Assembly: GCF_000002075.1 (NCBI RefSeq)
Contig: NW_004797274.1
Span: 2,653,473-2,717,472 of the forward strand
DNA length: 64,000 bases
Origin: Aplysia californica
Lineage: Eukaryota
Direction of reading: 5' to 3'
The notes under the pieces are model-generated. The model was not told the DNA's origin and ran no database searches. It was given only the letters and a program-made list of their open reading frames with translations. The position numbers and the translations under genes were made by a program. Shown here piece after piece: positions 53,884 through 58,855 of the stretch. Each line of letters begins with the position of its first letter. The first letter of the stretch is position 1.

Positions 53884-54678
53884 TAAACATAAACTGATTC
53901 CACCCACGATTTTTTCAAGCTCTGGACAGAGTAATTTTTCCCTGTTCAATCTTTAACCCGGGTTGCATTACGCTGTGCTGTGAGGCTCTAAGTTACTCTA
54001 ATATAATGTATTGACATATATACCAAACTGATGGGAATAAATTGAGGAATCTGATAATATCAATTGCTGTGACCTAATAATATATTCTGAAGGCCAGCTC
54101 TATTCGGATTTGAGTCCGAATATGGGTTATATTCTATTCAGACTCAGGTCCTAAAAAAATGTTATATTTTTATTCAGACTCAGCTTCTAAGTGAGTTATA
54201 TTATGTGATGTGAGTGTAAGGACATTACATAATAATATAGATCTAACTGTCCTCAGGAGATTCTATGTAAAACCAGAATTAAAACTACTAGGATTACACT
54301 CTCATTGCCCAACGGCAGTGTCTTTGTTCCTGGCAATTGACAACTCATGGTCTTTCCACCAACACTGCAGCATAGATCATAATTACTTCCACCACCATTT
54401 GTCTTTCCACATGTTTAATTTCATTTTGTTGTTTTATAGTTTTTTTCTGTAATCAATAATCTTTTAAAATCACATCGCACAAAATGGACAGCCATGGCCT
54501 CTTCCCAACACCTCTTCCCCCTGCTAACCGAGAGTGCGTGATAGCTACGCGCAGTCTCATTGGTTGACATAATTAACTTGGCCCATGGCAAGGTCAACTC
54601 AACTTGGTTGTTCTGTTCGTCTTGATTATAATCAGTATCGCAAAAAATTTCATAAATGCTAGATTTAGGAACAAGGGT

Positions 54679-56910
54679 CGGGGCGTTATTTCTTTATTAC
54701 ATAAAGGGAAAAATTTACGAAGGGACAATATAAAGAACTGGAGACCGATAACATTAACAAACACGGACTACAAAATCTTCTCCAAAATATTAGCTATACG
54801 GCTACAGCGTGTTATGCCAATTTTAATAAATGAAAACCAAACTGGCTTCTTGAAAGGCAGGTCCATTTCGGAGCACATTAGGACACTTGACGACATTATC
54901 TACGTAGCATCTGAAAAAAATCTACCAGGTATGGTGGTATCTCTGGATTTTCAACGCGCATTCGACACTGTAGAAAAGGGAACAATATTGGCCACATTGA
55001 AAAAGTTTAACTTTGGAGAAGGATTTATAAATATGGTGGGAGTTTTAATGGCTAACACAGAATGTTGTGTACAAAATGGGGGATGGTTGTCAGAATGGCT
55101 CAACACAGAGCGAGGAATAAAACAAGGTTGCTGCACAAGTCCACTTCTTTTTGTACTTGTTGCTGAGTTGATGTCAATAAAGTTAAGAAACAATAGCAGC
55201 ATATCTGGAATGAGCACAATTTTGTCAGGGGAAATAATTAATTTTTGCAAAGTTTTGCAGTATGCTGATGACACCACTCTGATTCTAAAAGACCAAGAAG
55301 ACCTTGCTTCAGCCTTGTTGGACATCGATTCTTTTGGTAGCATCTCTGGGCTCAGGCTGAACAAGGATAAATCACAAGGTATGTGGATTGGAAGTGATAG
55401 AACACGCACTGAAAAATTAGGAGGAATCAGTTGGGTCCCTAATGGGAATACAATTAAGATACTAGGTATTCACTTTAGTGCAACAGAGGAAGCATCTCGC
55501 ATAGAACTTAATTGGATAGACAAAATAGAAAATATGAAAAATATCATGAAAATGTGGATGAAAAGGAATCCATCCCTATATGGGAAAGTAATTATTTGTA
55601 AAACCTTTCTGCTGTCTCAAATATCCTATATAATTCAGTCACTATCTTTACCCGAAAGAGTTTTGAATACAATTGATACTTTGTTCTTTAAGTTTCTGTG
55701 GCAGAAGAGGCACTCAAACAAGAAAGCACGCGAGAAAGTAAAAAGAACGGTAATGTGTAGATCGATTGAGGAAGGAGGTTTGGGTGTTATAAGTGTTAAA
55801 GATCAACAGAAAGTTTTTCTATTAAATTGGTTAAAACGTATGGCAACTGTTACCGAAGGCAGACCCAAAAACATTCCCAACAGAATTTCAGACTTAGCTT
55901 TTACGGAGGTAGGAGGGTGTGATTACTTTTTTTCGGCTACAGCAAACTGCAAGAAAACGGGAAAATTGTGTCATGCCTCTAAGTTCTGGGAGAGTGTGAT
56001 GGATACATGGATCGAAATGGCTTCTATAAAAAAAGAACCAAGCTCCACGATAGAGATACTTATGGAACCTTTGTTCAATAACCGAAACATAAAATATAAA
56101 GGAAAATCATTGTACCTAAAAAGATGGATGAACTCGGGTATAAAATATGTATATCATCTGTATGATAGGAGAATATTAAAAAGTAAGGAGGAATTGTCTC
56201 ATATCACAGGGACATATGCTGCCTTTGATTTTGACTATTATGCGTTGATGAATGCTCTTCCTACACAGTGGAAGCAAGACGTCAGTGACAACAACACCGA
56301 GGAACTTTTGGTAAATACCAGAGAGGTAATAAATACGAATGGTAAGAAAACTGTTCTAGAGATACTGAGCAAATCGAACAGAGAGATCAGACAACTTCTA
56401 AAATACAGAAGACATGCAGAAATTTGTGGTCGGAATTTTTGGATGAGAAAAATGAACATTGACATAACATGTAAATACAACATAGCACACAGGTCAACGA
56501 AAGAATCTCGACTTAGATTATTGCATTTTAAAATCCTCCATAACATCTTCCCAAGTAACATTCTTCTCAATCGCCTAGGCATTAAAAATACTGAACTATG
56601 TGAGCACTGTGGTGTCAAAGACGTTATTGAGCACATGTTTATTCATTGTAACTTATTAAAAAACTTCTGGAAATACGTATTTCATACGATTTGTCTCAAA
56701 ACTTCCTCCCGTTTTCCCATGATTGACTGTAACATACTTTTTGGTTTCAGTGAACGAGGGCAAGGTGTAACAGAAGCCCAGTTAAACATCGCTAACCACA
56801 TTCTTTTGATCGCAAAGATGTGTGTTAGCAAGTTACGCTACAGCAAAGCGACAAATATACAAATCTTGTTTGAATCGGAGCTGGAGCTGAGAGAAAGTAG
56901 GTGGTCGTAA
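54679..56910 (+). CDS. LINE ORF2 remnant: reverse transcriptase plus C-terminal CCHC zinc finger (no endonuclease, no true start codon)
   Basis: GVISLLHKGK..NWRPITLTNTDYKI, QTGFLKGR, SLDFQRAFDTV, RGIKQGCCTSPLLF, QYADD, KILGI, GGLG, CEHC...EHMFIHC. No stops or frameshifts over ~740 codons. The first 25 codons of the track ORF are flanking DNA. Confidence 0.93.
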   Translation, partial: RGVISLLHKGKNLRRDNIKNWRPITLTNTDYKIFSKILAIRLQRVMPILINENQTGFLKGRSISEHIRTLDDIIYVASEKNLPGMVVSLDFQRAFDTVEKGTILATLKKFNFGEGFINMVGVLMANTECCVQNGGWLSEWLNTERGIKQGCCTSPLLFVLVAELMSIKLRNNSSISGMSTILSGEIINFCKVLQYADDTTLILKDQEDLASALLDIDSFGSISGLRLNKDKSQGMWIGSDRTRTEKLGGISWVPNGNTIKILGIHFSATEEASRIELNWIDKIENMKNIMKMWMKRNPSLYGKVIICKTFLLSQISYIIQSLSLPERVLNTIDTLFFKFLWQKRHSNKKAREKVKRTVMCRSIEEGGLGVISVKDQQKVFLLNWLKRMATVTEGRPKNIPNRISDLAFTEVGGCDYFFSATANCKKTGKLCHASKFWESVMDTWIEMASIKKEPSSTIEILMEPLFNNRNIKYKGKSLYLKRWMNSGIKYVYHLYDRRILKSKEELSHITGTYAAFDFDYYALMNALPTQWKQDVSDNNTEELLVNTREVINTNGKKTVLEILSKSNREIRQLLKYRRHAEICGRNFWMRKMNIDITCKYNIAHRSTKESRLRLLHFKILHNIFPSNILLNRLGIKNTELCEHCGVKDVIEHMFIHCNLLKNFWKYVFHTICLKTSSRFPMIDCNILFGFSERGQGVTEAQLNIANHILLIAKMCVSKLRYSKATNIQILFESELELRESRWS

Positions 56911-57213
56911 AGCTCATCGATAGCACCTGCGGTGGTAAGATAAAATATATATATATATAAATATCCTGTTTCCAGCAGCTCATATCTGAAAGAAACGGAT
57001 GGGAAAAGTGTGGTTTTACTTTTTTTTTTAATATAAAAAAAATATCTATATACTTTTCTGGCAGTATATTGCATGATAACATTGTTCAATACCCCATTAG
57101 ACAAAGTTAACGGACGCCTTATGTTTGGGAGAAAAGATGGCCAGTCTCTATAGTATAACCATTCCCTCAGCACCCTACTCATCATAATAATAATGTTTAA
57201 CTCTTCATGGACG

Positions 57214-57262
<49 letters not shown>

Positions 57263-58387
57263 GTCTTCTCCTAATCCACGTCTTACTTTCCTTTTNNNNN
57301 NNNNNNNNNNNNNNNNNNNNNNNNNNNNNNNNNNNNNNNNNNNNNNNNNNNNNNNNNNNNNNNNNNNNNNNNNNNNNNNNNNNNNNNNNNNNNNNNNNNN
57401 NNNNNNNNNNNNNNNNNNNNNNNNNNNNNNNNNNNNNNNNNNNNNNNNNNNNNNNNNNNNNNNNNNNNNNNNNNNNNNNNNNNNNNNNNNNNNNNNNNNN
57501 NNNNNNNNNNNNNNNNNNNNNCTGTAACTTGTCCAACCAAAGCACATCTATCTAGATTTAGCTGGTAGCATATACACAGTTAATGATTTGTCAAATTTAA
57601 GATTCATTTTCAAACGTCATTTTGGAAATTACACAAATGTATGACGAGACCGTGTAGATGCAGACACAGGGTGCTTGATTGGGGAGTTTGAGGCCGCTCC
57701 CCCCGAGGCGAGGGGATACAATATTGTGTGTAAATTGTTCCCTCTCGACTCGGGTTCGAGGATCCTGTGTCGGAATCTCCGCAACTTCATATATAAATAA
57801 GTATAAAGTCTTTAACCCAATTGTGAATTGCTGCCTGCAAACCCCTTACGAAACCCCAAAAATAATCTCTACCACTGTACTAGCTACCTACTAAGGTCCT
57901 CTCTTCACTTGTCTTGGTCCGCTAGAATAGGCTAATACTAACAAGGTCACCATAGCAGAGACTGTGCCCACCATTTCGGAACTTCACGGTGACATTAAAG
58001 ATGGTTCCAGTAGGGAACGGGATAGCGGGTGCCCACATCCCTCGTGACTCATCAGAGCAGAGGAAGATAGGACTAACGCTAACATTATTTTTTTTTAAAC
58101 AACAACAACAACCAAATAACAGAAGCATGTTTTCTTATAATTATAAACGTAAGCACCATCCCACATCATCACTTACCACCACCATCACCGTCATTTCTAA
58201 GGTCATCATTGCTCTCAGAGCCTTCACAAACATCTATAATTATCTTAAACATCTATATGTAACAGTTATATGTCATAACAAATTTGTACGTTATACATTA
58301 TTGGGCACTCTCATACGCACATTTTTCTACTAATCAGATGGCGTCAATATCCTAGAAATGGGCAAGGGACCAAAAAAAAAAAAAAAA
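54682..58387 (+). mobile_element. 5'-truncated L1/Tx1-clade non-LTR retrotransposon with poly(A) tail and 15-bp TSD
   Basis: AGGAACAAGGGTCGG occurs at 54667-54681 and 58388-58402. A-run from 58372. Target context is TTT/AGGAA. Contains the RT ORF; an N-gap lies at 57296-57521. Confidence 0.9.
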
Positions 58388-58855
58388 AGGAACAAGGGTC
58401 GGAAGTTGGAACAGACGTCATGCTGGACTCAATTCAGAGTCCGAATATAATTTTTTGTCTATTCAGACTCGAGTCACTTCGTATTCTGAATGTATTGTAT
58501 TTTCCCTCAGACAATAATGAATGAGGAAAAAAGTTGCGCTACACATCTTCGAAAACTTTAACTTACCTAATTTTCTCAGCCCTACAATTTATCATCCATA
58601 GGAATCAATGCAAAATTGTAGAGCTATCATCCTAGCACAAATTATGCAAGTATTTCACAAATTTAGTTGAATATTTTTCACTGAAGGGCCTTTTTATTAT
58701 TCAAGGCTCCATGTTGTCTTTACCCTTACTTCGTACCTGCATAGCCACAACAAAACAATGATTTTTGCAAGAATTTCACGTAACTTCGATCGATTTTCGT
58801 GCTCGTAGGCTTGTTTACAAGTTAGTTATACTTTCTTTCGAAACTTTAAAAGTAG

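Follow-up and report, generated by a model that had tools for sequence, protein, structure and literature searches.

One question that is raised by a 64,000-nucleotide stretch of the Aplysia californica genome (RefSeq assembly GCF_000002075.1, contig NW_004797274.1, positions 2,653,473 to 2,717,472; hereafter the window, in whose own numbering all positions are given) regards how much of the DNA behind a truncated retrotransposon gene belongs to the retrotransposon. An earlier note, made from the letters, had pointed to an exact 15-bp duplication at the point where a reverse transcriptase (RT) open reading frame, ORF2, is cut short, and again behind a poly(A) run about 1.46 kb past the ORF2 stop. 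It left open whether these 1.46 kb are the element's own 3' untranslated region (UTR) or host DNA acquired by 3' transduction. Our answer, which we hold with considerable confidence, is that the insertion is a young, truncated copy of an L1-clade long interspersed nuclear element (LINE) with a native UTR, that truncations in its family cluster in two predicted hairpin loops, which are likely cut, and that it contributes two cryptic exons to its host gene.

The duplicated 15-mer, AGGAACAAGGGTCGG, was found at 54667-54681 and 58388-58402 as the note had said, and at no other place on the plus strand of the 64-kb window; it is also absent from the minus strand. Family homology begins at 54682, the base directly 3' of the first 15-mer, with a 5'-truncated ORF2 (54682-56910, plus strand) that includes the RT and a C-terminal zinc-binding region (Pfam RVT_1, E 5e-32, and zf-RVT). 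This ORF2, which has no in-frame stop between the truncation point and the one at 56910, begins at base 2934 of a full-length 6553-bp copy on contig C134. The poly(A) tail lies at 58372-58387; the A run itself is 17 nt long (58372-58388), and its final A doubles as the first base of the second 15-mer. The element sits in a host interspersed repeat (54300-54666, resuming at 58403-58475), for which the genome search gave 309 first-look candidates. Paralogues of this repeat join the left and right flanks in 14 of the 19 fetched, and in the three that were printed (L280, L284, and L298) the flanks are joined and the 15-mer is present once. Because these empty paralogous sites carry a single 15-mer, the duplication is a true target-site duplication (TSD), which confirms the claim that everything between the two 15-mers moved as one retrotransposed RNA. 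No empty allele of the insertion locus was seen among the loose contig ends listed. The element that entered this host repeat is a young 5'-truncated L1-clade LINE copy, bounded by its 15-bp TSD and ending in poly(A). The target repeat (54100-54666 together with 58403-58475) has similar sequence near both of its ends and is possibly a non-autonomous DNA transposon.

Whether the 1461 nt between the stop and the tail (56911-58371, plus strand) are native was asked by searching the animal's own genome, with 57522-58371 (1944 first-look candidates) and with 56000-57215 (95), 40 being scored in each search. These searches answer the question that the earlier note had wanted put to the genome with 56910-58371, and they decide for a native UTR: on 13 other contigs the distal tail stands in line with ORF2 (C735, C134, C3, C575, C309, C122, C178, C94, C542, C7, C325, C161, and C338), at identities from 99.8% down to about 75%. 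On four of these, ORF2 and tail are enclosed by TSDs of their own, on C134 (14 bp), C735 (16 bp), C575 (14 bp), and C309 (11 bp). Homology within the family stops at 58367-58371, just before A-rich tails, and the genome search gave no single-copy host locus for the tail sequence. Since full-length members carrying the same UTR exist, the tail is native, and the 1.46 kb past the ORF2 stop are the family's own 3' UTR. The note had also remarked that no AATAAA directly precedes the poly(A) and had taken this in favor of an element-encoded end; both points are borne out, with no AATAAA in 56800-58500 and a single ATTAAA at 57994.

In the transduction reading the (TA)n tract just behind the stop closes the element, and the remaining 1.4 kb are host DNA from one source element. 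This reading draws on the length of the tail, on the (TA)n tract, and on the internal microsatellites, but we regard it as practically excluded. The tract does exist, at 56945-56959 (plus strand), as the note had seen, yet the possible element end that the note placed there is not one, as long copies align through it and it lies inside the UTR. On 13 other contigs, with separate TSDs, ORF2 is followed by the same tail, homology stops at the poly(A), and there are hundreds of tail-only copies with LINE hallmarks. With neither a unique host donor sequence nor an internal element end, 3' transduction is refuted, and the single unlinked donor locus that it had been expected to reveal gave way to a family-wide tail. 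Nor is the N stretch of the window an assembly gap, as had been assumed, or the site of a mis-join. There is no N at this locus in the genome itself, and three long copies (C134, C3, and C575) are continuous there, with simple repeat in its place. It forms part of a microsatellite tract of variable length (57216-57521) that starts with (CT)22.

One finding does weigh against a UTR that was always the family's own. In the oldest subfamily (70-76% identity), all eight long copies checked stop near the (CT)n tract without ORF2. It may be that the distal 0.8 kb originated as an independent mobile module, captured long ago by the ORF2 lineage through ancient recombination and native since. Of the oldest and most abundant subfamily only tail pieces are seen, which halt at the (CT)n tract (8/8), and its sequence upstream of about 57610 differs from that of the young family. 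However, copies at 75-86% identity (C161, C7, C325, and C542) already link ORF2 and tail, and microsatellites are themselves likely break points, so that we consider such a capture rather unlikely. Within the native UTR, no conserved frame or codon pattern for protein coding appeared in the output listed. A block at 57872-58071 is conserved without a strong fold or codon pattern (bins of 50 nt are 85-90% identical in old copies, and folding z ranges from -1.3 to +1.7). The terminus at 58331-58371 is common to all subfamilies, with about 90% identity in old copies and copy ends at 58367-58371. The summed contig depth is maximal at 57872-58071 and comes there from an older, far more abundant subfamily that is about 73% identical over the UTR.

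Full-length members of the family measure 6553 bp (C134) and about 6820 bp (C735) and consist of a short 5' UTR, an ORF1 of 314 amino acids, an ORF2 of 1244 amino acids with apurinic endonuclease (APE) and RT domains, the long 3' UTR, and poly(A). The ORF2 of C134 matches Pfam Exo_endo_phos (E 8e-16) and RVT_1 (E 1e-31), and the best match in the PDB is LINE-1 ORF2p (E 4e-68, residues 3-869), R2 proteins reaching only 5e-26. For ORF1 (L112:3925-4866, from a full-length copy) no Pfam family was found at E up to 1. The ORF2 of the window differs from the C735 copies at 5 of 2229 nt and from C134 at 10; thus the family was recently active, as the note had concluded from the open frame. Many Tx1 families target specific sequences. 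Such targeting was not seen here, as TSDs differ at every locus compared; they vary from 11 to 16 bp and share only purine-rich starts. A homologue search gave 2253 matches, nearly all unnamed, with no named Tx1 reference among them. The L1-clade definition that we used, from passages of PMC5203782, names two ORFs, about 6-8 kb, a 5' UTR, and a 3' UTR with poly(A). The L1-clade hallmarks found in the family are APE and RT in ORF2, two ORFs, variable TSDs, 5' truncation, and 5' inversions.

Some family members are rearranged. On C735 (283564-303005; L109-L111) two full-length copies stand in tandem and have a single 16-bp TSD and 3' flank in common, and the first of them has an in-frame internal duplication that gives an ORF2 of 2408 codons; this arrangement may be a local duplication or an assembly artefact. 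Internally deleted copies occur as L074 (C592), L115 (C309), L116 (C122), and L112 (C134), and one internally deleted copy has shrunk to about 110 nt between 13-bp TSDs. Splicing was rejected as the origin of the deletions on C134, C122, and C592, whose junctions are short shared letters and not GT-AG.

Another question is where the many shorter copies begin. We scored two independent samples: a young one, made up of all 48 loci with the exact 20-mer at 57734-57753 (48/48 scored), and an older-subfamily one, chosen by a motif at 57986 (81 found, 70 fetched, and 69 scored). In the young sample 18 of the 5' ends lie at 57693-57701, 3 at 57705-57718, and 8 of 48 at 57726-57734; none lies at 57645-57692, and 19 of 48 lie further upstream. 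The 18 ends of the first group count as 17 independent events, because two copies share a flank. This first hot spot (57693-57701, plus strand), with its mode at 57694 and a sharp upstream edge, takes 18 of the 37 young copies that reach 57702. In the older subfamily the corresponding share is 7 of 16 (57690-57702), with a further 2 of 9 ending in 57645-57689. The second hot spot (57721-57734, plus strand) holds 8 of 48 young ends and, at 57721-57733, 5 older ends plus 1 censored of 22, with 0 of 22 in 57736-57789. Expressed as a rate, truncation in the older subfamily is 3.4 per 100 nt in 57690-57702 as against 0.0-0.4 in 57736-57909. First-look candidates numbered 37 for 57580-57690 as against 124 for 57800-57910.

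The short form arose repeatedly in the family. For the tree, 76 copies were taken, those short of 58320 were skipped, 7 were dropped for length, and 57 rows were kept. On it the 16 hot-spot-1 rows need 12 changes, at least 8 of them forced by starred branches, and a single origin of these copies appears in 0% of 200 bootstrap trees. Because they are polyphyletic on the LINE tree, the short copies are recurrent products and not a single short interspersed nuclear element (SINE). As a pattern, then, of the cDNAs long enough to reach 57702, about one in two has its end in the dozen bases that follow; young and old subfamilies both show this, and it happened independently on the tree. A splice acceptor at 57693 was ruled out as the source of the short copies, since their 5' flanking sequences have no relation to each other and border directly on TSDs. 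In some of the short copies a 34-nt unit (within 57701-57743) is tandemly amplified at the 5' end, with many units on C1443 (L218, C1443:58102-58738) and also in L183 (C30), and a step-back joint of the same unit is present in three runs. Two further short copies, L024 (C698) and L070 (C387), have inverted 5' pieces from 57768-57792. In a word-matched literature search of partial coverage we found no description of loop-fixed LINE truncation hot spots, and none is described in the passages of PMC4758252, PMC11485995, and PMC10830416.

Prediction of the RNA structure places both hot spots in a conserved, branched stem-loop (57651-57783, plus strand). Its parts are an outer stem, a side hairpin of 7 bp (57682-57701), and, at 57702-57753, a long hairpin. 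The first hot spot covers the loop and 3' arm of the side hairpin and the second covers the loop of the long hairpin, so that both end clusters sit in a hairpin loop or at the beginning of a 3' arm. The 34-nt unit corresponds to the 5' arm and loop of the long hairpin, and the inverted pieces come from the 3' foot of the structure. The segment 57660-57800 has a predicted minimum free energy of -60.8 kcal/mol (z -5.4), which 0 of 200 shuffles reached. In 19 old copies the folded segment is about 90% identical to the window, with neighboring blocks at 78%, 80%, 84%, 74%, and 80%. Five older-subfamily copies fold alike and four keep the side hairpin. No unusual folding was predicted for the last 120 nt of the UTR (z +0.7). 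An Rfam scan of 56800-58500 gave nothing below E 1.7. In particular, none of the self-cleaving ribozymes (HDV-like, hammerhead, twister, and hairpin) was matched there, and inspection for their core motifs found none.

LINEs insert by target-primed reverse transcription that starts from the poly(A). We propose that a structure-specific cut in the hairpin loops, made in the RNA template or in the folded cDNA, would fix the 5' ends, and that small losses at the junction would yield the scatter of ends just downstream of 57694. Going by the end pattern, such loop cleavage is the likeliest cause of the hot spots, though we would put it at about even chances. The cDNA is predicted to fold with the same loops as the RNA. 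In the passages of PMC10830420 the causes of 5' truncation are called poorly understood, and host cleavage of the RNA or of intermediates is favored over polymerase failure. Several observations count against our proposal. Covariation is weak (2 of 40 pairs) and the fold is a predicted one; a broader rise in truncation (0.7-1.0 per 100 nt) is seen at 57910-57986, for which no strong fold is predicted; and a clear TSD is present on only some of the hot-spot copies (C453, C1098, C42, and C804). AU-rich unstructured RNA nearby shows few ends, and for this reason a generic single-strand RNase does not fit. Moreover, all sequencing runs are contigs, the ends that were read are those of genomic copies, and the nuclease of the loop-cut model is hypothetical.

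A possible but less probable explanation is that the ends arise at the polymerase, where the ORF2 protein falls off at the loops or the refolding RNA displaces the cDNA. The ends do lie at the 3' edge of both loops. In a model of displacement by refolding RNA, a local cost minimum was computed at 57697-57700 when long stretches (80-100 nt) are released. The two inversion junctions at the 3' foot of the structure (C387 and C698) and the tandem 34-nt repeats of 57710-57743 at some 5' ends fit as well. However, the weakest hybrid of that model lies at 57757-57767 and 57742-57748, where none of 22 old copies ends, and human ORF2p is described as highly processive in passages of PMC10830420. In this simple snap-back form the model was discarded, as its lowest-cost positions carry no ends. 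The short copies could also be a SINE-like, non-autonomous family, tail-only copies of 0.64-0.68 kb with an internal start at 57693 and masters of their own. Such a family would account for the sharp upstream edge at 57693-57694, for the TSDs and poly(A) of several short copies, and for a B-box-like GGTTCGA at 57755. It is improbable nonetheless, because on the LINE tree the short copies do not group together and each stands beside long copies of like age, because there is a second end cluster at 57721-57734, and because no tRNA, 5S, or 7SL match was found in Rfam. A single SINE master is ruled out by the tree (12 changes in 16 rows, at least 8 forced), and as a variant the internal start at 57693 may have been used afresh in each subfamily. 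Loop cleavage could, at its most speculative, have a dedicated form, in which the 130-nt structure would be a built-in cleavage device, either a new self-cleaving RNA or the target of a dedicated nuclease, that cuts at 57693/57694. We give this only a slim chance. If true, the device would end about half of the long reverse transcripts, shed harmless 0.68-kb SINE-like copies throughout the history of the family, and act as a self-limiting brake on full-length transposition.

The insertion also raises the question of what it does to its host. It lies in sense orientation in the first intron, a 5'-UTR intron, of a plus-strand gene for a UAA-family nucleotide-sugar transporter, presumably SLC35B4-like. 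Pfam PF08449 (UAA) is matched by four exons in 60109-63932, in profile order (3-23, 28-68, 70-101, and 120-146), and one of these exons alone exceeds the curated cut-off. The non-coding exon 1 of the host has its 3' end at 51993-52021 with the donor CAC|GTAAGT. Exon 2 (60057-60185) has its likely start codon at 60109, and further coding exons lie near 61062, 61718, 62477, and 63851. Four sequencing runs were aligned to 53900-57200: X11 and X18, from two studies, and two that are DNA-like, X2 and X10. A GT..AG joint from 55378 to 56751 is present in X11 (depth 338) and X18 (depth 24) and absent in X2 and X10. The joint links two cryptic exons inside ORF2, both flanked by AG/GT and on the plus strand: exon A, 126 nt at 55253-55378, and exon B, 146 nt at 56751-56896, which stands between host exons 1 and 2. 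The X11 and X18 contigs, unlike those of X2 and X10, have loose ends on the 5' side of 55253 and of 56751 and on the 3' side of 56896, and their loose letters match the window exactly at 51993-52017, the end of exon 1, and at 60062-60086, in exon 2. Host exon 1 letters precede 55253 in X18, in which a 1403-nt contig opens with exon B and continues into exon 2 letters. In X11 the contig of exon B (56751-56896) has a depth of 1293 as against 60-130 around it. Host splicing thus uses the splice sites of ORF2, as exon 1 - B - exon 2 and as exon 1 - A - B - exon 2, in the contigs of two runs. The same sites are present in other family copies and therefore came with the insertion. Against this it has to be held that the RNA status of the runs was guessed by a tool, and that the exon depth may include other family copies. 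X18, in addition, stands under another organism label; it has the variant at 55326 in common with X11, was treated as conspecific or nearly so, and was counted with care. Exon B contains an ATG at 56818 (with A at -3) that opens a predicted upstream ORF of 33 codons, whose stop lies 29 nt before the host ATG. This upstream ORF would be predicted to lower translation of the transporter.

Other repeats surround the insertion. At 58822-59000 and beyond lies a very high-copy repeat whose relatives have a GGTTCGAATCC-type motif and whose contig depth exceeds 1 million in X2; it is likely a tRNA-derived SINE. Tandem units of 36-46 bp (GTTACCGTGTACGTAGATACTGAGACTAGGTGCCC type) occupy 53366-53880 in two blocks of opposite orientation. 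Arrays of (ATCTAG)n are found at 31955-32021 and 52141-52280, the second about 120 bp downstream of host exon 1.

Taken by itself the element is ordinary, a truncated young L1-clade copy with a long native UTR; the recurrent, loop-fixed truncation and the exonisation lift it modestly above that. The cause of LINE 5' truncation is still an open question according to passages of PMC10830420. With half of the long cDNAs ending within about 10 bases of one hairpin loop, this family offers a short, defined substrate that could separate template cleavage from polymerase stop in one experiment. The insertion is also recent and already reshapes the 5' leader of the mRNA for a housekeeping-type transporter, which makes it a clean case for asking what a young LINE insertion costs an invertebrate-type genome.

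In L1-mediated 3' transduction a TSD encloses sequence far beyond the ORF2 stop. The Aplysia insertion resembles it in this respect and differs in having neither an internal element end nor a unique donor locus, since the sequence is family-wide. With the L1 clade (human LINE-1 ORF2p; Tx1 subgroup) the family shares the order of 5' UTR, ORF1, short spacer, APE-RT ORF2 with a C-terminal zinc-binding region, 3' UTR, and poly(A), along with TSDs of 11-16 bp, heavy 5' truncation, and 5' inversions. It stands apart in an ORF1 without a Pfam match, a UTR with microsatellites, sharply clustered truncations, and a long stem-loop predicted some 600 nt before the element end. The 5' end of the element, CATCCGGTT..ATGGCG, resembles the starts of lizard and zebrafish L1 elements shown in passages of PMC5381506. 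The same passages report sporadically long native 3' UTRs, of 2751 bp in an armadillo L1 and 2124 bp in zebrafish L1-11A (PMC5381506), to which the Aplysia UTR is likened by length and not by homology; the Aplysia element lacks a poly-purine tract. Structured 3'-end stem-loops exist in stringent LINEs and in the tails of LINE-derived SINEs (PMC4176376, PMC5135761). The likeness is a conserved structured RNA in a LINE 3' UTR, here a predicted one, whereas the Aplysia structure, of 130 nt, lies within the UTR and not at its end, and marks the points at which copies start. Exonisation of intronic L1 was already known (PMC3192792); there, as here, an intronic LINE gives cryptic exons to a host transcript. 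What distinguishes the Aplysia case is an invertebrate-type L1-clade ORF2, on the sense strand, that provides two cassette exons in a 5' UTR through splice sites already present in other Aplysia copies of the family.

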